DNA of 64,000 nucleotides from sequence record OP557969.1; one strand, given 5' to 3'. Below, piece after piece: positions 17,635 to 26,313 of this stretch. The position numbers were made by a program, and so were the translations under genes. The DNA is from Escherichia phage ph0011. The notes beneath the pieces are model-generated. The model had not been told where the DNA came from. It did not search any database and saw only the letters and a program-made list of their open reading frames with translations. The stretch's first letter is position 1, and each line of letters opens with the position of its first letter.

Positions 17635-17663
17635 TTGACAAGTTGAAAATGATGTGATATAAT
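17635..17663 (+). promoter_or_regulatory. sigma70-type promoter P1 (TTGACA, 17-nt spacer, extended -10 TGaTATAAT)
   Basis: Consensus -35 TTGACA 17635-17640 and TATAAT 17658-17663 with TG at -15/-14; -10 lies inside inverted repeat TGTGAT...ATCACA. Confidence 0.6.
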
Positions 17664-17725: not shown

Positions 17726-17753
17726 TTGACGAGTTGAAATGATGTGATATAAT
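17726..17753 (+). promoter_or_regulatory. sigma70-type promoter P2 (TTGACG, 16-nt spacer, extended -10)
   Basis: Near-duplicate of P1 about 90 nt downstream (AGTTGAAATGATGTGATATAAT); -10 inside inverted repeat GATGTGA...TCACATC. Confidence 0.55.
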
Positions 17754-17922: not shown

Positions 17923-19248
17923 ATGACTACTCAAAACGATATCCTGAACGTTAAACTGACTCCAAAGAAAGCTAAAGAAGCAATGGCACTAGCTGACATG
18001 ATTCAAGATAGCCTGATGATTTGGGGTAGCCCAGGTATCGGTAAGTCTGCAATCGCTCGTCAATATGCTGATGAAAATTATCCACTGCGTAAAGACAACG
18101 AAGCCAAAATTGAGTTAATGAAACAACAAATTGAAGCTGACCCAGAGAATGCTGAACAGCTACGTCGTGAACTAGCTGCATTTGAAGCAAAACTGATCGA
18201 CCAAGATACAAACTTTATCGATTTCCGTTTGTCTCAGATTGAACCAAGTGACCTTCGTGGTATTCCAGTTCCAGAGAAACTTTTCCGTAAAACTGATGGT
18301 TCTCTCCTAAAAGAATCTGAGCTTGCTGAAGCAAAAGATTATGTAGCTGAAACAGCAGTAGTATGGGCAGCACCTAAAGTACTGAAATTACCAGATGATT
18401 GGAAAGGTGTTATTCTGTTTGACGAAATTAACTCTGCAATGCCAATTGTTCAGGCAGCGTCTTATCAGCTAATTCTCGACCGTTGTGTTGGTGAGATGAA
18501 GCTACCGAAAACTGCCCTGATTCTTGCAGCAGGTAACCGTGAAACTGATGGCGGTGTGACGTTCTCACTGGCTACACCACTACGTGACCGTATGACACAC
18601 ATTGAGATGATTCCTTATCATCAAGATTGGATCAACGATTATGCAATTGGTAAACGTTTGAACCCAGCAACTGTTGCGTTCATCAACAACACAGGTTCTA
18701 AGTACTTTAACACTCTTAGCCCACAAGATCCTTCTCACAGCGGTGGTACATCTCCGCGTTCATGGGAAGCAGTAGCACGCTACGAAGATCTGAAGAAAAC
18801 TAAGACGATTGATAAAGAAGTATTCCGTGCAATGATTGCGGGTCGTGTAGGTGAAGGTGTTGCAACTGAATACATTGAGTACGTTGATAACGTTGCAAAA
18901 CTCCCAGATACCATGTCTATTCTGTCTGGTGAAATCAAAGATATCGATGCGTCTCTTGATATTTCTGCTAACTACTTTATCACACTGAACTTGGTTTATA
19001 AAATTATTGACCTGTACAATGAGAAGCAAGAACAACGTCTACCAGTGGAAGAATGGGGTAAATTGTGCAACAACTTCATCACCTTCCTAGACCATAACTT
19101 CTCTGCAACTCAAGCAGAATTGGCAGTGCTGGCAATCCGTACCATTACACTACATAAGGTTTTGATTTCCATTAAAGATGTACCAGCGTTTAAAGATTTT
19201 ATCGCTAAGTACTCTGAACTAGTTCGTAAAGCACGCTCTCTTGGGTAA
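17923..19248 (+). CDS. MoxR/CobS-like AAA+ ATPase
   Basis: 441 aa; Walker A GSPGIGKS, Walker B ILFDEIN, sensor/Arg motifs AAGNRE and RDR; about 110-aa insertion between Walker A and B. Confidence 0.8.
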   Translation: MTTQNDILNVKLTPKKAKEAMALADMIQDSLMIWGSPGIGKSAIARQYADENYPLRKDNEAKIELMKQQIEADPENAEQLRRELAAFEAKLIDQDTNFIDFRLSQIEPSDLRGIPVPEKLFRKTDGSLLKESELAEAKDYVAETAVVWAAPKVLKLPDDWKGVILFDEINSAMPIVQAASYQLILDRCVGEMKLPKTALILAAGNRETDGGVTFSLATPLRDRMTHIEMIPYHQDWINDYAIGKRLNPATVAFINNTGSKYFNTLSPQDPSHSGGTSPRSWEAVARYEDLKKTKTIDKEVFRAMIAGRVGEGVATEYIEYVDNVAKLPDTMSILSGEIKDIDASLDISANYFITLNLVYKIIDLYNEKQEQRLPVEEWGKLCNNFITFLDHNFSATQAELAVLAIRTITLHKVLISIKDVPAFKDFIAKYSELVRKARSLG

Positions 19249-19322: not shown

Positions 19323-20747
19323 ATGTCCGATAACAAAACTACATCTGTGTTCAATGAAGTATCCCCAGAACTTCAGAAAGAATGTCAAGACCGTCTAGTT
19401 CTGGCTCGTACATCTTTGATGTTGACTGCACCATTCTTCGGTGTATTGGCTTCGCGTTTGCGTCCAGTTCCAAATAACACATGGTGTCGTACTTTGGCAG
19501 TTGATGGTAAACATTTATTTTACAATGTAGAATTTGTAATGGGTGTTCAAGATCCAGCAAAAAAGAAAGCATATGAAGAGGCTATTCGCGAAAAGCACCC
19601 AGAAGTTACTGAAGAACAATTAAAAGAAATGACTGAAGGTCTGACAGATGAAAACATTATTGCAGTAATTTGTCATGAAATCTTGCACTGTGCATACGAT
19701 CACTTCCTTCGTCGTGGTATGCGTGATCCACAGCGTTATAACCGTGCAGCAGATTATGCGATTAACCAAATCATCGTTCGTGAGAAAATTGGTAAAATCC
19801 AAAGCTCATGGTTGTATGATAAAAAATATGAAGGAATGACTGCTGAAGAGATTTATAATCTTCTTGAAGAAGAAGAGCAACAGCAAGATGGTGAAGGTGA
19901 AGGTACACCACAAAGTGGCAGCGGTGAAGGTGAAGGCAAAGATCGCGGGACATTTGGTGATATCAAGGATGGTAAGGGTAAACCAAAAGGTACTACAATT
20001 GACCAACATGACGTTCCACAAGAAGGTCAAGAAGGTGGTTCTAGTGAACAACAAAAACGTGATTATATGGATGATTTTAAAACAGCAATGATGAATGCTG
20101 CTCGTGCTGGTGGTACACCAGCAGAAATCGCTCGTATGATTAATAACTTCAAAGAACCAAAGATTGATTGGCGTTCTAAGCTTCAACGCACTCTTCGTAG
20201 TTGGTTGAAGTCTGATGCAACTTATCAAAATCCAGCACGTCGTTCATGGGGTGCAGGTTTTGGTTCTAATGGTTCATTTTATGGTAATCCAATTTATCCA
20301 GGGATGAAACCAGATGATGATATTGATATTGCGATTGCTCTGGATGCTTCTGGATCTATTTCCGAAGACATGCTTCGTGATTTCATTAGTGAAGTTCTTG
20401 GTATCACTAAACAATTTAAACAGTTTAAGATTCGTATCATGACATTTGATACTGAAGTTTATACTGTCAAGGATTACAAAACTGGTGAAGAACGTAAGAT
20501 TCTGGAATATCCAGTAAAAGGTGGTGGCGGTACTGATTTTGAAGCAGTGTGGGTTCACATGAAGAATGACAATTATAAGCCTAAACAGCTTGTCATGTTT
20601 ACTGATGGTGAGCCATGGCAGTCATGGGGTGATCCAAACTATTGCAAAACATTGTTTGTGATTCACAGTAATCCAAATAAAGTTGCACCATTTGGTGAAA
20701 CAGTACACTACGAGTATGAAGCAGACAAAAAACGTCAACGTAGTTAA
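19323..20747 (+). CDS. VWA-domain protein with N-terminal HExxH metallopeptidase-like domain (CobT/DUF2201-like partner of MoxR ATPases)
   Basis: 474 aa; HEILH zinc-binding-type motif; low-complexity linker (GEGEG); MIDAS motif DASGS and GGGGTDFE in C-terminal VWA-like domain. Confidence 0.8.
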   Translation: MSDNKTTSVFNEVSPELQKECQDRLVLARTSLMLTAPFFGVLASRLRPVPNNTWCRTLAVDGKHLFYNVEFVMGVQDPAKKKAYEEAIREKHPEVTEEQLKEMTEGLTDENIIAVICHEILHCAYDHFLRRGMRDPQRYNRAADYAINQIIVREKIGKIQSSWLYDKKYEGMTAEEIYNLLEEEEQQQDGEGEGTPQSGSGEGEGKDRGTFGDIKDGKGKPKGTTIDQHDVPQEGQEGGSSEQQKRDYMDDFKTAMMNAARAGGTPAEIARMINNFKEPKIDWRSKLQRTLRSWLKSDATYQNPARRSWGAGFGSNGSFYGNPIYPGMKPDDDIDIAIALDASGSISEDMLRDFISEVLGITKQFKQFKIRIMTFDTEVYTVKDYKTGEERKILEYPVKGGGGTDFEAVWVHMKNDNYKPKQLVMFTDGEPWQSWGDPNYCKTLFVIHSNPNKVAPFGETVHYEYEADKKRQRS

Positions 20748-20760
20748 GTACTAAATAATG

Positions 20761-20789
20761 AGAACGGAATTTTCCGTTCTCTTCTTTTT
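20761..20789 (+). terminator. intrinsic terminator
   Basis: AGAACGG-AATTTT-CCGTTCT followed by CTTCTTTTT, 14 nt after stop. Confidence 0.55.
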
Positions 20790-20842: not shown

Positions 20843-21091
20843 ATGGAGAGTAATAAAATGGAACAAGAAAACAATCAAATTCAACTAACCCTTCTGGACC
20901 TAATTAACGCTGCAAAAATCATGGAAGCTGCTGTTGCACGAAACACGTTTAAAGTAGAAGAGCTAGTTGATGTATCTCCAGTTGTCTCTAAGTTTGTTTC
21001 TTTTGCAAACGTAGCACTTGAAGATATCAAAGCACAAGAAGATGCAGCTAAAGCACAAGAAAGCGAAACTCAAGAAAATAAAGGAGAGTAA
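20843..21091 (+). CDS. hypothetical protein
   Basis: 82 aa; alternative start at ATG 20858 has better RBS spacing (GGAGAG). Confidence 0.5.
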   Translation: MESNKMEQENNQIQLTLLDLINAAKIMEAAVARNTFKVEELVDVSPVVSKFVSFANVALEDIKAQEDAAKAQESETQENKGE

Positions 21092-21093
21092 TT

Positions 21094-21750
21094 ATGGCAG
21101 CTATTCGTCATGTTGGTGTAATGCGTAATACAGGTTCTCGTGTTTTTGTTGTTTGGCGTTCACTACCAGATGATCCTGAACACTGCCTTATTGTTTATCG
21201 CGATTCACTTCCTGAAGCATATGTTCATGCAGTGACTGATATTGTGATGGGGCATGGTCAATCAAATATTGATTTATGGGAAGTGATGCATAAAATCGGT
21301 TATCTAGATGGTCGTAAAATGTTAGATGTTTTACATAACATGCAATATCTACGCCGTGTACGTACTTGTGATATCGATATGCACACTGGTGGTAATAATA
21401 AAATCTCACTTGATGTGCTTAATAAAGCATTGGATGAAAATCAAGCTAAAATTCAAGAAGATGGTAAAGTAAAAGACTTTAACCCATTTGACCCACAGGA
21501 AGCTGACACTAAAGTTGAAGAAGCTACTATTGTTGAAAAACTCATTTCTGATGCACAAAAATATGAAAAACTAGCTCAAGAATATTATGAGCGTGCATAC
21601 AATCTAGAGCCATCATTGCGTCCACAAGCACAAGTGGTTGAGCATAAAAAAGATAGCAAAACACTTTATCTGGAAATCCCAGAAGGTATTTCACAAACCA
21701 AGGCTATTGAGAAAGTAAAACAACTGTTTGCAGCACGAAAAGCAAAATAA
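21094..21750 (+). CDS. hypothetical protein
   Basis: 218 aa; AAGGAGAG RBS; no motif recognised. Confidence 0.6.
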   Translation: MAAIRHVGVMRNTGSRVFVVWRSLPDDPEHCLIVYRDSLPEAYVHAVTDIVMGHGQSNIDLWEVMHKIGYLDGRKMLDVLHNMQYLRRVRTCDIDMHTGGNNKISLDVLNKALDENQAKIQEDGKVKDFNPFDPQEADTKVEEATIVEKLISDAQKYEKLAQEYYERAYNLEPSLRPQAQVVEHKKDSKTLYLEIPEGISQTKAIEKVKQLFAARKAK

Positions 21751-21753
21751 ATT

Positions 21754-22347
21754 ATGACAAAGATTGAATTAGATGAAGCGATTAAAGGTTTATCTAATGT
21801 GTGTTTTAGTGGCGGGGCAGCAGGTGCTGACCGCCTTTTTTCTATCTATGCAAAAGATAATGGATTTGAAGTTGTTAATTTTTCATTTAAAGGTCATGAG
21901 CATAGTGTAGATGAAAATACTATATTAGAAATACCATCCAATATTCTATCTGATATTTCTATATTAAAGCAACTAAACATTGCATGTTACTCGTTGCAGA
22001 GAAAAGTACCAAAGCCTGGTTCTTATGTTTATAACTTACTTGCAAGGAATAGTTATCAAATACTTAATACAGAAAGAATATATTGTATTGCAAATATTAC
22101 ATCACCAACTAAGGTGAGTGGTGGTACTGCATGGGCAGTGCAGATGTACATGGATTCAGTTGAAAATCCTGAAATTTATTGTTATGATATGAATTCACGT
22201 TCTGTATTTTATTTTGACACAGTACTGAAAGAGTTTACTGAAACATTCTCAATACCAGAACCACACGGTAACTGGACTGGGATTGGTTCACGTAATGCTA
22301 CACAAAAACACATGGAACATTTTATTACATTTTTCAAGGAAGTATAA
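21754..22347 (+). CDS. SLOG/Rossmann-like protein (DprA/LOG-like glycine motif)
   Basis: 197 aa; FSGGAAGADR and later SGGTAWAV glycine-rich motifs; stop overlaps td start (TAATG). Confidence 0.4.
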   Translation: MTKIELDEAIKGLSNVCFSGGAAGADRLFSIYAKDNGFEVVNFSFKGHEHSVDENTILEIPSNILSDISILKQLNIACYSLQRKVPKPGSYVYNLLARNSYQILNTERIYCIANITSPTKVSGGTAWAVQMYMDSVENPEIYCYDMNSRSVFYFDTVLKEFTETFSIPEPHGNWTGIGSRNATQKHMEHFITFFKEV

Positions 22348-23987
22348 TGAAACAACTACAAGAACTATATCAAAAAATTCTAGATGAAGGCGTGGAAAGT
22401 GTTGACCGTACTGGTGTTGGTACAACCAAACTTATCGGTCAACAAATGCGTTTCGACCTTAACGATGGTTTTCCAGCAGTGACGACAAAACGTCTAGCAT
22501 GGAAAACAATGGTTGCTGAACTTTTATTTTTTATTAAAGGTATTCCAGACCGTCGAGTGATGCAGGAATTTTTACATGGTGAATTTAATGAAGATAAGAA
22601 CGATATTTGGAAAGGTAATTGTGTTGATATGAAAAATAAAAATCCATTAAAATTTAATGGATACAATTTAGGTAATATGTACCCAGTTTACTGGAGACGA
22701 ATGTATAAACCTGTTCCTAAAACAGTTAAAGTTAAACGTAAAAAAGACTTTGATTTTGAATATATTGAAAAATATAAATCATTTTATGATGATGTAGAAA
22801 TTGAAAAACATCATAAATCGGGTCAAACATTCATTGATATTAGGGGAGATGAGTTAGAATATCTTGGATTCAATGGACAGTATGAAAATAAACGACATTA
22901 TTTGAAATATAAGAACACGGGAACTATAATCAAACTCAATACATCTGAAATTGATATTAAACATAATAAACTTAATAGTGGTGAAGATTATTATAAAAAA
23001 AATTCAGTCGGTGGATATTTGGGTGCACCACGTGAAGTTCTTTCAAATGATCCATTGAACTCAAAAGTACAGAGCCTATGGTATAATATGCTTTCTCGTG
23101 TAAACACCTCTCCCAACTATAATAATATTAGTGTTAGCCCAAGGTGGTATAATTATTATAACTTCCTAACTGACATTCGTACTATACCACTGTTTTTTGA
23201 ATGGTTGGATGATCCAACATATTATGAATTAGATAAAGATTATTTTGGTTCATCTGTTTATTCAAGAAATACATGTACATTTTTACCCAAACATATCAAT
23301 CAAAAATTAATAAGAAAACGCAATGACTGTGCATTGGAAGTTGATGGAATACTTTATTATTCATTTACATGTTTTTATAAATCAATTTATGGTGGGAAAA
23401 CACAACCAAAAGATCCATTTACTTTTTTAGAAAATAACGGTCATACTTATATTATTCACGAAGAGACAGATGAATATGTATACCGTCCACAATTGTTTAT
23501 TGATCAATTAGAAACTGTTATTGAAAATATTAAACATGTCACCTTGAATGAAAATCATCCGGCTGGACGTAGATTGATTATGGATTCTTGGAATCCATCA
23601 TGGGAGGACGATTCAGTTCTGGGAATATGTCACCCATTTGTTCAATTCTTTGTAGTGAATGGAAAGCTGTCATGTGAGTTTTATATGCGTTCATCTGACA
23701 CATTTCTTGGATTACCACTGAATATATCATCATATGCATTATTGACGCACATGATTGCACAAATTACAGGTCTAGAAGTAGGAGAGCTAATTTACACTGC
23801 TGGTGATTGTCACATTTATAAAAATCACATTGAACAAGTAAAAGAACAACTACAACGAAAACCACGTGCATTACCTGAATTATGGATTGATCCTACTATT
23901 ACTGATATTGAAGATTTCACAATGGATTCTTTTAAATTGATTAATTACGATCCAATGCCAACAATTAAAGCACCGATGGCTGTATAA
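22347..23987 (+). CDS. td: thymidylate synthase (T4 Td-like) with about 260-aa in-frame insertion
   Basis: N-terminus DRTGVGT...GFPAVTTKRLAWK and C-terminus with catalytic Cys (ICHPFVQFF), DTFLGLPLNISSYALLTHM and PTIKAPMAV are ThyA-like; residues ~121-379 have no ThyA counterpart. Confidence 0.8.
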   Translation: MKQLQELYQKILDEGVESVDRTGVGTTKLIGQQMRFDLNDGFPAVTTKRLAWKTMVAELLFFIKGIPDRRVMQEFLHGEFNEDKNDIWKGNCVDMKNKNPLKFNGYNLGNMYPVYWRRMYKPVPKTVKVKRKKDFDFEYIEKYKSFYDDVEIEKHHKSGQTFIDIRGDELEYLGFNGQYENKRHYLKYKNTGTIIKLNTSEIDIKHNKLNSGEDYYKKNSVGGYLGAPREVLSNDPLNSKVQSLWYNMLSRVNTSPNYNNISVSPRWYNYYNFLTDIRTIPLFFEWLDDPTYYELDKDYFGSSVYSRNTCTFLPKHINQKLIRKRNDCALEVDGILYYSFTCFYKSIYGGKTQPKDPFTFLENNGHTYIIHEETDEYVYRPQLFIDQLETVIENIKHVTLNENHPAGRRLIMDSWNPSWEDDSVLGICHPFVQFFVVNGKLSCEFYMRSSDTFLGLPLNISSYALLTHMIAQITGLEVGELIYTAGDCHIYKNHIEQVKEQLQRKPRALPELWIDPTITDIEDFTMDSFKLINYDPMPTIKAPMAV

Positions 23988-23994
23988 ACGAAAA

Positions 23995-24020
23995 GGGAGA
24001 ACATATGTTCTCCCTTTTTT
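23995..24020. terminator. bidirectional terminator between convergent genes
   Basis: Perfect palindrome GGGAGAACA-TA-TGTTCTCCC flanked by A-run and T-run; td stops at 23987, minus-strand fibre gene stops at 24022. Confidence 0.6.
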
Positions 24021-24021
24021 A

Positions 24022-26313
24022 TTATCTAATTGTTACCAATGTTCTTCCGTCGAAACGTACATCAGGAGTTGAAGGTATACTAAACACCACGTTAGTGCCG
24101 TTAAACGTCACGCTATCGACCTCAACACGAGTATATACACCAGGGCTAATCTGTTCCTGTATCTCTGCTGTAACGATGTTTGAGGCTGTTACTGTAAGGG
24201 TGTATGAATCACCACTTAATACCCATGATGAAATAGTAAATGCGTCTGTCCTAACTGAACCTGAACCAATAGGAACCCATTGCCCTTTTACCTTTTGCAT
24301 AGAGGTTCGTTCGGATGTAGAGTATGCAATCATACCATCGACACCCACTGAGTTATCAATGCTTGCTAGTACTGGCAACTGAATACCATATCTATTAAAA
24401 CGTGTACGGATAGTTCCATTATCATAGATACTTACATCAGCATAATTACCCATAGAAAGTTTCAAATCCGCTCCATCCAATGTCATTGAACTTTGATTTG
24501 TATTACTTTCTAGTGTGAGTACACCGTTAGCTAATAAATTGATATTTTTAAATTTATTACTATTTCCTTTAAAAGTTGTATTAGCATTAAAAGTACTTGC
24601 ACCGTTAACTACAATAGTATTTTCTGCTGTGTCGCCTAATATGGTATTACCATTCAAAGTGGTTTCACCATCTACTACAATATTGGATTCGAAAGTACTA
24701 TTACCATTTACTACAAGATTGGATTTAAAAGTTCCATCACCATCTACGTCTACAGTAGAATGGAAAGTACTCTTACCATTAACCACAATAGTATTTTCTG
24801 CGGTATCACCCAATATGGTATTACTATGAACAGTCAAATTACCACTGGTGGTAACATTACTAGCTAGTGTATCACCATTCAATGTACTTGTTCCATCTAC
24901 TACAATATTGGATTTGAAAGTACTTTTACCATTAACCACAATAGTATTTTCTGGGGTTTCACCCAATGTTGTATTACCATGAACATTCAAATTACCACTA
25001 GCAGTAATATTACTAGCTAATGTATCACCAACCAATGTACTAGTACCATCTACTACAATATTACCATGAAAAGCACTTTCACCATTTTTGAATTCAACTT
25101 GTTCTTTATTCATTGAACTAAATGAAATGATATTACTACTTGCACTTATTCCAACATTAGTATTAGTTGGATTATCGAATCTCAGAACTGGCGTTGACGC
25201 AGGTGATGATGTTGATTGATATAATGTCAATGTCGAATTGGTAATTCTAATACGTTCAGTTCCAGAAGTACTGAATCCAATAGCATCATCAGCAGGATGA
25301 AAAATACCAGTATTCGTGTCTGACCATTTTTCAGGGTCATTACCTGGGTTGCTTACTGGGTCGTATGGGCTATTGTTAAATGCAATTGCTGGTGCGGTAG
25401 CACTACCATAGGTCACACCAAATCTACCACCTCCTACTGTACCATCGTCGTACATGGAATCACCAGTCCTACGTAAGCATTCAATTACAACGTTGTCGAT
25501 TGATGTTTGAACGGTTCCTGCATTCGTTCTAAATGGACGATTATTTGCAATCATGATAGTATTATCATATAATACTGAAGCTGCTGAAATACTAGTTCTT
25601 GATTGACGAAGGCGAATGTTTTTATCTTCAGTGATAATGATCCAATCACCATCTGATAGTGCTGTTTGGTTCATTGGTACACCGGATGCAAACGGTTTAG
25701 TTAAATCTTCATCAGTTGCTAAGTTTACTAGCCCACTATGACCAGTACTGGGAATGGCGGTAGATACAATTCTCGCAAAAGCATATGTTACGAGTTTAGC
25801 ACCAGAAATATTTGGATTAGAATCAACATAATATAAAATTTCTACCCAATCACCCTGACCAGTTGGGTTAGTTGGAGTGAATGTCACTGTACTTGTTGTT
25901 GGTTTATTAGCTTCAAAGTGTGCTTGTGCTGCATCTATAATACCACGTACAACATAATAATCACCACTAAGTGATGCTGTAGGTGCAGGTAGTGGACTTT
26001 GTGCCAAAGGTGGGTCTATATCATCAGGGATTGGATTATACGTACCAACAAATTGTAAACCACTAGTTACTGAATCTGGTAACTGTGATGTAAGAAGTTT
26101 GCCGTTAGCATCTAAGTTTGCAAAACGTCTATATGCCATCGAGCCATCTTCAAAATCCAGAACACCCTCGAATGATTTCCATTCTTTATTGTATCTAATC
26201 ATCCCTGATCTTATTACGTCAGCGGTTTCTTTTGATGGTGCTTTTGGTAACTCTAAAAAAGATTTACTATCAATAATTACACCACCATCACCTCTAATTC
26301 GATTTATACTCAT
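24022..26313 (-). CDS. tail fibre / receptor-binding protein with beta-helix-like repeats
   Basis: 763 aa; GAGG RBS; C-terminal ~40-aa repeats (ENTIVVNGKSTF three times); S/T/N/G-rich. Confidence 0.7.
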   Translation of the reverse strand: MSINRIRGDGGVIIDSKSFLELPKAPSKETADVIRSGMIRYNKEWKSFEGVLDFEDGSMAYRRFANLDANGKLLTSQLPDSVTSGLQFVGTYNPIPDDIDPPLAQSPLPAPTASLSGDYYVVRGIIDAAQAHFEANKPTTSTVTFTPTNPTGQGDWVEILYYVDSNPNISGAKLVTYAFARIVSTAIPSTGHSGLVNLATDEDLTKPFASGVPMNQTALSDGDWIIITEDKNIRLRQSRTSISAASVLYDNTIMIANNRPFRTNAGTVQTSIDNVVIECLRRTGDSMYDDGTVGGGRFGVTYGSATAPAIAFNNSPYDPVSNPGNDPEKWSDTNTGIFHPADDAIGFSTSGTERIRITNSTLTLYQSTSSPASTPVLRFDNPTNTNVGISASSNIISFSSMNKEQVEFKNGESAFHGNIVVDGTSTLVGDTLASNITASGNLNVHGNTTLGETPENTIVVNGKSTFKSNIVVDGTSTLNGDTLASNVTTSGNLTVHSNTILGDTAENTIVVNGKSTFHSTVDVDGDGTFKSNLVVNGNSTFESNIVVDGETTLNGNTILGDTAENTIVVNGASTFNANTTFKGNSNKFKNINLLANGVLTLESNTNQSSMTLDGADLKLSMGNYADVSIYDNGTIRTRFNRYGIQLPVLASIDNSVGVDGMIAYSTSERTSMQKVKGQWVPIGSGSVRTDAFTISSWVLSGDSYTLTVTASNIVTAEIQEQISPGVYTRVEVDSVTFNGTNVVFSIPSTPDVRFDGRTLVTIR

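Follow-up and report, generated by a model that had tools for sequence, protein, structure and literature searches.

We analysed a 64,000-nucleotide stretch of DNA from Escherichia phage ph0011 (record OP557969.1; hereafter the window); its DNA shares about 90% identity with that of jumbo phages of the Rak2/121Q/PBECO4 type. The gene studied here, coding for a small protein of the SLOG superfamily (the SLOG gene), lies in a four-gene unit bracketed by two hairpins, in the order orf82, orf218, SLOG gene and td, the thymidylate synthase gene. The features of the unit were as follows:

20760-20781, no strand assigned: bidirectional terminator-like hairpin, upstream boundary of the four-gene unit
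20843-21091, + strand: orf82 (PHROG 13789), first gene of the unit
21094-21750, + strand: orf218 (PHROG 15894), directly 5' of the SLOG gene
21754-22347, + strand: predicted SLOG-fold ORF (PHROG 768 family), 197 aa, single domain, circularly permuted; ATG start, TAA stop at 22345-22347
22336-22342, + strand: Shine-Dalgarno-like AAGGAAG for td, within the 3' end of the SLOG ORF, read from the sequence
22347-23987, + strand: td, thymidylate synthase (ThyA), 546 aa; start codon overlapping the SLOG stop by one base
23990-24019, no strand assigned: bidirectional terminator-like hairpin with a 13-bp stem, after td, downstream boundary of the unit

The junctions inside the unit consisted of a 2-nt gap (orf82/orf218), a 3-nt gap (orf218/SLOG) and a 1-nt overlap (SLOG/td). 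As the initial annotation had reported, the SLOG stop codon overlaps the td start: the td ATG is at 22347-22349 and one base is common to both (TAATG). Translational coupling to td was proposed along with it, but the overlap is no special signal, all the junctions of the unit being equally tight. Tight gene spacing is the norm within the window, and because comparable spacing is so common there the SLOG/td overlap says little by itself; it reflects general operon compactness. In the Rak2-like clade the order SLOG-td was kept and the tight junction was not conserved: 121Q has the 1-nt overlap, RaK2 a 2-nt gap, and the two genes are separated by one ORF in GAP32 and by two in XaC1. The position of orf218 upstream of the SLOG gene was kept in 11 of 11 Rak2-like loci. 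The possibility that orf218 is a diverged kinase was ruled out, as its sequence has no P-loop and matched no kinase profile.

The td product was identified as ThyA by Pfam PF00303 (E 1.8e-78) and by the NCBIfam equivalog TIGR03284 (275 bits against a cutoff of 108). Its reading frame carries an in-frame insert of about 260 aa (about nt 22698-23501) uninterrupted by stop codons; its similarity is to HNH homing endonucleases, outside their catalytic part (PHROGs 2081, 953 and 374). A group I intron in td was ruled out, there being no Rfam match, and a search of the insert for an intein gave no Hint or other Pfam match. Comparable td inserts, about 29% identical, occur in the Klebsiella phages KP13-7 and phiKp_21, E. 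coli phage UE-S1 and Bacillus phage 015DV002. The exon-like flanks of td were 57-70% identical to the td of 121Q, and the adjoining SLOG gene was 94% identical to its closest phage homologues; the divergence of the flanks, together with the similar inserts, fits repeated invasion or co-conversion at the td site. Weak Rfam hits to sraA and MicX at 23931-24062 were discarded as chance matches, being far below the gathering cutoffs and located on the terminator hairpin after td.

Outside the unit, two products resemble gp24 and gp25 of phage N4: a MoxR-type AAA ATPase (17923-19248) and a DUF2201/VWA metallopeptidase-like protein (19323-20747). This pair was found upstream of the SLOG gene in 11 of 11 Rak2-like loci. 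In the window each of the two genes has a hairpin terminator after it, and the pair is preceded by two sigma-70 consensus promoters, one perfect (17635-17663, 12/12 with the TG) and one near-perfect (17726-17753). On the other side, a tail-fibre-like ORF on the minus strand (24022-26313) converges on td; within it a unit of about 45 aa recurs several times, with the motif 'NIVVDGTSTL.GDTLASN.T.SGNL.VH.NT.LG'.

Relatives of the SLOG ORF were detected by tblastn in 85 phage records, at 29-94% identity, and a profile search with the family matched at least 524 protein clusters, many of them from contigs of 400-580 kb. Among 64 diverse sequences of the family 14 columns were invariant, and 14 columns were also invariant in a wider set (n = 29) that includes copies embedded in giant proteins. 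On account of these relatives, the size of the profile family and the invariant columns, the SLOG ORF is a real conserved jumbo-phage gene and not a chance reading frame. Its product matched PHROG 768 ('DprA-like') with an E value of 4.7e-27; the counterpart in 121Q is gp567, which RefSeq labels 'DprA-like DNA recombination-mediator protein', and a close homologue is labelled as a DUF2493 protein in one GenBank record. Precomputed Pfam domains were present in none of the 524 family clusters. PHROG 768 is a distinct phage-specific family that Pfam does not model; within the SLOG superfamily it lies towards DprA and YpsA. Some members are longer, about 304 aa (Phosso, L002 4983-5897, and P0085, P0087, P0093 and P0099), owing to a conserved C-terminal extension of about 115 aa which gave no Pfam or PHROG match.

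The glycine-rich motifs FSGGAAGADR and SGGTAWAV, on which the initial annotation had based its assignment, are both present as quoted, at aa 18-27 and 122-129 of the protein. The conserved motifs of the family map to the window as follows:

21808-21831, + strand: SGGAAGAD, aa 19-26, loop after the first strand; S19, G20, A22, G24 and D26 invariant
22036-22059, + strand: LLARNSYQ, aa 95-102, R98 invariant; equivalent to DprA 'FLARNR'
22120-22155, + strand: GGTAWAVQMYMD, aa 123-134, loop and helix after the strand-4 equivalent
22279-22293, + strand: GIGSR, aa 176-180, last strand (E174-178), then the C-terminal helix

The first of these is the canonical SLOG strand-2 loop ('SGGALGVD' in DprA, 'GGAxGAD' in YAcAr), and positions 31-60 of the YAcAr model align there. 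Its invariant G24-x-D26 corresponds to the GxD signature of the YpsA clade, in which GxD/E after strand 2 is the substrate-binding signature (PMC6459960). In the third motif G123, T125, A128 and Q130 were invariant among the 64 sequences, and G124, M131 and D134 were present in at least 90% of them. GIGSR represents the SLOG strand-1 'G-S/T-R' loop, moved to the C-terminus. GIGSR, SGGAxGAD and GGT were invariant or nearly so in both the 64 and the 29 sequences, in permuted order. When the embedded copies were included (n = 29), the invariant residues were S19, G20, G21, A22, G24, D26, R83, R98, G123, G124, T125, G176, G178 and R180.

The AlphaFold2 model built on the family alignment was of very high confidence (pLDDT 97.4, pTM 0.92). 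The predicted fold is a three-layer alpha/beta Rossmannoid that matches solved SLOG structures, and a Foldseek search with the model gave 3imk as the sole confident match. The elements are ordered as follows: strand 16-19, the SGGAxGAD loop, a helix, strand 39-44 and a helical insert that ends in LLxRNxxQ (helix 91-102); strand 108-112, the GGT loop, helix 125-135, strand 141-145 and a beta-hairpin; and finally strand 174-178 (WTGIG), the S-R pair and the C-terminal helix. The unit that opens canonical SLOG domains (strand 1 and helix 1 with the 'G-S-R' loop) thus closes the domain in this family, and the domain is most probably circularly permuted. The opening unit was located at the C-terminus by mapping the motifs to DprA. 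In Helicobacter pylori DprA the residues R52, R143 and R170 contact ssDNA and correspond to R139, R234 and R261 of ShosA (PMC12961424). Alignment to PDB DprA sequences placed R52 ('IIGTR', strand 1) at R180 in GIGSR, R143 ('FLARNR') at R98 in LLARN, and R170 ('SSAR') at V129, which is variable. R180 and R98 are thereby invariant equivalents of DprA contact arginines, of a kind that binds phosphate in other SLOG families too.

The permutation was also examined by shifting the last 32-40 residues or so of ten members to the N-terminus and scoring them against Pfam DprA. Five of the ten then aligned from the GSR position over model positions 108-167, with E values down to 1.9e-5; the best score was 24.4 bits against a cutoff of 29.6, and all were below the cutoff. 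Unpermuted, 6 of the 64 members matched Pfam DprA weakly (best E 0.0063). The motif order is permuted in the sequences themselves, and the strand order of the central sheet is presumably permuted with it. The protein is almost certainly a compact single-domain SLOG Rossmannoid, of a phage-specific family on the DprA/YpsA side, with its strand-1/helix-1 unit permuted to the C-terminus. The SLOG/DprA-like Rossmann assignment of the initial annotation was thus borne out by the PHROG 768 match, the confident model, the Foldseek match to 3imk and the glycine-rich loops.

The genes that accompany this family in other phages differ from those in the window. In most other phages with the family the SLOG gene directly follows a dNMP kinase gene of the gp1 type. 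The window contains the same kinase, followed after 96 nt by the tail sheath gene:

5731-6357, + strand: gp1-type dNMP kinase (HMM E 3.3e-78; Pfam DNMK 48.3 bits against a cutoff of 27.1)
6454-9117, + strand: tail sheath gene, 96 nt after the kinase (HMM E 1.9e-219)

At this site the window has no SLOG gene. The Rak2-like lineage has kept the kinase followed by the sheath, and its SLOG copy is 15 kb away, abutting td. The gap between kinase and sheath therefore corresponds to an 'empty' kinase-[SLOG]-sheath site, and either arrangement could be ancestral. In Atu_ph07 and Phosso the SLOG gene overlaps the 3' end of the kinase gene (PHROG 139, E ~1e-46), by 4 nt and 22 nt, respectively, and in both it precedes the tail sheath gene. 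The order kinase-SLOG(-sheath) was also found in the metagenomic contigs L014, L020 and L021.

An IMG/VR scan, annotated with seed-derived HMMs, gave 79 loci from the best 80 of 181 matches, a sample biased towards relatives of the query. A dNMP kinase gene was directly upstream on the same strand in 46 of the 79 loci and elsewhere within 5 kb in 7; 11 were Rak2-like with ThyA downstream, 2 had the SLOG domain inside a giant ORF and 13 showed other contexts. Eighteen of the 46 kinase-adjacent loci presented overlaps of 4 or 1 nt, and with other choices of start codon the number of overlapping pairs rises to as many as 35. After clustering, 21 of 43 clusters were kinase-adjacent at 70% identity and 6 of 16 at 50%. 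The kinase-SLOG pair was kept both with the sheath gene downstream on the same strand (22 loci) and with the sheath gene upstream on the opposite strand (22 loci); around the pair gp13 was found in 38 loci and the sheath in 52, as a conserved block of structural genes. The dominant genomic partner of the family is the dNMP kinase, and td is the partner in the Rak2-like lineage.

The remaining contexts were diverse. In Cr30 (L001 4998-6055) the SLOG gene comes directly after gp47/gp46 and is followed 2 nt downstream by a peptide deformylase gene; gp46/47 are also near the SLOG gene in L041, where a peptide deformylase gene is about 1 kb upstream. In E. coli K-12 (L013) dprA/smf adjoins def, a likeness to Cr30 and L041 that may be a coincidence or a trace of common ancestry. 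Pfam searches of the neighbours showed an overlapping uvsY, the SLOG gene and then uvsW in L081 (4528-7281), ThyX 1.5 kb downstream of the SLOG gene in L079 (843-3614), and a family-B DNA polymerase (PolB) downstream in L078 (4998-8813). A dCMP deaminase gene is upstream of the SLOG gene in L015 and L016, and NMNAT-Nudix and NAMPT genes are downstream. NAD-related neighbours were sporadic, in one or two loci each: these NMNAT-Nudix and NAMPT genes of L015/L016, an NAD synthetase gene in Atu_ph07 and KptA in L021.

The domain was also found inside very large proteins. In the N4-like phage Pylas (L012 440-11899) it is inserted in the virion RNA polymerase (3,819 aa), where it occupies aa 984-1112. 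In the crAss-like phages it lies near the C-terminus (aa 4068-4226) of a 4,328-aa protein of cr113 and within a 5,801-aa protein of cr130. The cr113_1 gene (gp38, L011 4392-17378, minus strand) has TAG in frame 73 times and is otherwise free of internal stops, from which we conclude that this phage reads TAG as sense (taken as Gln); RefSeq calls the whole 4,328-aa cr113_1 protein 'DprA-like' on account of the 160-aa domain. In L090 (2727-10507) a giant ORF of at least 2,593 aa carries the SLOG domain and, 400 residues downstream, an AlkB-like 2OG-Fe(II) oxygenase domain (aa 1300-1432), and in L098 (3756-10564) the domain is in an ORF of at least 2,269 aa. A viral structure library contained it in further giant proteins, one fragment of which is labelled as a DNA helicase.

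As to function, the three glycine-rich loops (GIGSR, SGGAxGAD and GGT) together with R83, R98, R180 and D26 would line a crevice where the strands have their C-terminal ends, the place at which SLOG proteins bind nucleotides through a phosphate group, and the conserved loops and arginines probably form a single site for a phosphate-bearing nucleotide. We propose that the crevice binds a 5'-phosphorylated deoxynucleotide, either a free dNMP or the nucleotides of ssDNA; since both place the same chemical group in the crevice, the two are not mutually exclusive chemically. The SLOG protein would be an accessory of the phage machinery of DNA precursors and DNA metabolism, co-expressed with dNMP-processing enzymes. 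In most phages its partner would be the gp1-type dNMP kinase, whose gene the SLOG gene overlaps; in the Rak2/121Q lineage the SLOG gene would have left the kinase site and now stands at the end of an operon, abutting the thymidylate synthase gene. The best support for a link to nucleotide metabolism is that the gene adjoins two different dNMP-handling enzymes in different lineages, and the non-homologous thymidylate synthase ThyX in a third. The earlier suggestion of a link to pyrimidine metabolism or DNA modification stands insofar as the enzymes that adjoin it (kinase, td and ThyX) act on dNMPs; they indicate a connection with dNMPs at large rather than with pyrimidines or base modification.

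On these grounds our tentative choice is that the SLOG protein binds dNMP-type ligands and serves the supply of dNTPs from dNMPs in the phage, a proposal put forward as a reasonable possibility short of a probable one. Several observations weigh against it. Modelling of a kinase-GS linker-SLOG chain with AlphaFold2 (paired alignment, 44 genomes) gave confident domains (pLDDT 90) and no confident complex (pTM 0.54), a linker-monomer model being a weak test. The kinase-SLOG pair lies within a conserved structural block, so that the association may partly be inherited synteny, and the kinase-adjacent clusters fall to 6 of 16 at 50% identity, as noted above. The tight coupling to td was not kept across Rak2-like phages. 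The conserved arginines are phosphate binders throughout the superfamily and do not discriminate between dNMP and ssDNA, and the charge and pI analysis of the protein was uninformative on mechanism. Finally, the contexts with gp46/47, uvsY/uvsW, PolB and giant virion proteins point to DNA transactions rather than precursor pools. The protein may accordingly be a minimal DprA-like ssDNA binder that holds nucleotides of ssDNA in its crevice, as DprA and ShosA do, and serves replication, repair or recombination, for instance by mediating or protecting ssDNA. This reading, which we consider possible but somewhat doubtful, draws on the motifs SGGAxGxD, [FL]LARN and G-[ST]-R, which are closest to those of DprA, and on the match to Pfam DprA after permutation. 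Two arginines that ShosA/DprA need to bind ssDNA and to function are invariant here (PMC12961424), and SLOG/DprA proteins of jumbo phages were suggested as possible extra ssDNA binders by Iyer et al. 2021 (PMC7824862). The contexts just mentioned belong to Cr30 and L041 (gp46/47), L081 (uvsY/uvsW) and L078 (PolB); the AlkB-like domain in the same L090 polypeptide and the fragment labelled as a DNA helicase are in line with them. The embedded copies, as parts of ejected virion proteins, would act on incoming or template DNA. N4-type virion RNA polymerases use single-stranded promoters, and the Pylas copy is inside such a polymerase.

The copies in giant virion or ejected proteins of crAss-like, N4-like and metagenomic phages also suggest delivery at the start of infection, as would suit a counter-defence module that binds or cleaves nucleotide immune signals or toxic metabolites (cyclic ADP-ribose isomers, ADPr derivatives or cyclic nucleotides). 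Such a role was predicted for viral YpsA-like SLOG proteins by Iyer, Burroughs, Anantharaman and Aravind (PMC9503650), and the YpsA-clade GxD signature is present here; NAD-related genes were near few loci (L015, L016, Atu_ph07 and L021), and for this family we regard the role as unlikely. A wider formulation combines dNMP binding or processing, as a component of phage supply together with the gp1-type kinase and ThyA/ThyX, with delivery of the pre-made domain by N4-like and crAss-like phages onto host nucleotide pools or immunity; we find this compound version rather improbable as a whole, though less so than counter-defence as such. The protein could in principle be an N-glycosidase or base-exchange enzyme on dNMPs or DNA, feeding a td-linked base modification in line with the DNA modification suggested in the initial annotation, since the SLOG/LOG and the related deoxyribosyltransferase folds include enzymes of N-glycosidic bonds and the SLOG gene abuts td. 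RaK2 has neither hydroxymethylase nor glucosyltransferase genes, and methylation is the sole modification reported for its DNA (PMC3622015). Nothing was found in support of DNA hypermodification, and we judge this activity very improbable. We give slightly less credence still to a mimic of ShosA-like SLOG antitoxins, which would replace the labile host antitoxin and neutralise the PRTase toxin of Shosta-type abortive-infection systems. Some other role makes up the remainder beside the dNMP, ssDNA, counter-defence, antitoxin and N-glycosidase explanations.

Part of this picture was already known: PHROG 768 is catalogued and automatically labelled 'DprA-like', and jumbo-phage SLOG proteins have been surveyed in silico (PMC7824862, PMC9503650). 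Three aspects appear new, namely the conserved kinase-SLOG gene pair, for which a literature search combining SLOG and dNMP kinase found no linking paper, the relocation of the SLOG gene beside td in Rak2-like phages, and the repeated occurrence of the family within giant, presumably ejected proteins of the N4-like and crAss-like phages. The label 'DprA-like recombination mediator' derives from the PHROG name; by Pfam score, motif order and domain composition the family falls outside DprA, and its main genomic partner is a dNMP kinase and not a recombination gene. If the protein acts on dNMPs, the dNTP-synthesis machinery of phages, under study since T4, would gain a component so far missing; should it bind ssDNA, it would be the smallest DprA-type module known, injected by phages with their DNA; and if it binds immune signals, it would be a new anti-defence domain. 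With 197 aa and a very confident predicted structure, it may be easy to handle.

Comparison with known SLOG proteins placed the family apart from each of them. The nearest structural neighbour of the model is 3imk, a 'putative molybdenum carrier protein' of Syntrophus aciditrophicus, which we take to be the structural representative of Pfam cpYpsA (PF12694), a circularly permuted YpsA SLOG family. 3imk is a bacterial and not a phage protein, and the likeness gives no mechanism; PDB profile searches with a limit of E<=10 did not return it, searches of PDB sequences with the protein and two family profiles gave nothing meaningful, and PF12694 matched neither the query (E<=1) nor the 64 members (E<=0.1). 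Likewise, there was no close structural match to the gcADPR-binding SLOG domain of the Thoeris ThsA type.

Among characterised SLOG proteins DprA shows the greatest likeness at the level of motifs (SGGAxGxD, [FL]LARN and G-[ST]-R). In contrast to DprA/Smf (PF02481) and ShosA, the phage family has a permuted motif order, scores below the cutoff even when re-permuted and is missing the third contact arginine; it is about half the size of DprA, without the SAM or winged-helix domains of most DprA proteins, and its genomic company, dNMP kinase or td, differs from that of DprA and ShosA. An hhalign comparison of the family profile with E. coli Smf (probability 0.1%) showed the correspondence of the RN motif only. 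YAcAr/DUF2493 (PF10686), a YpsA-related family of phages and mobile elements, was the sole Pfam model matching the query (E 7e-4, in the GGAxGAD region), with 19.8 bits against a cutoff of 28.2 and over model positions 31-60 of 66 only; 25 of the 64 members matched it weakly, and the N-terminal strand-1 portion of YAcAr has no counterpart at the N-terminus of the phage protein. None of the 64 members passed a Pfam gathering score.

The catalytic motif of the LOG family is PGGxGTxxE. The position of its catalytic Glu is occupied in the phage family by Ala128, invariant among the 64 sequences, and for this reason the protein is probably not a LOG-type phosphoribohydrolase. The family also differs from the LOG/PpnN-type phosphoribohydrolases (PF03641) in its permuted motif order and in having no Pfam match to them, in the query or the 64 members. 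For YpsA there was no Pfam match either, despite the GxD signature, and for nucleoside 2-deoxyribosyltransferase neither the fold nor a profile matched.

Viral SLOG domains occur in 31% of jumbo phages and 'remain experimentally uncharacterized' (PMC9503650). The viral YpsA-like SLOG proteins, predicted to sense or process NAD/ADPr derivatives (Iyer et al. 2021, 2022; PMC7824862, PMC9503650), are likewise enriched in jumbo phages and sometimes fused with kinase-fold and helicase domains. Their surveys stress Macro/NADAR fusions and NAD/ADPr, whereas the main partners of the phage family described here are the gp1-type dNMP kinase and thymidylate synthases. By Pfam the protein is no member of DprA, YAcAr, LOG, YpsA or, by sequence, cpYpsA; it would act like a SLOG nucleotide binder.
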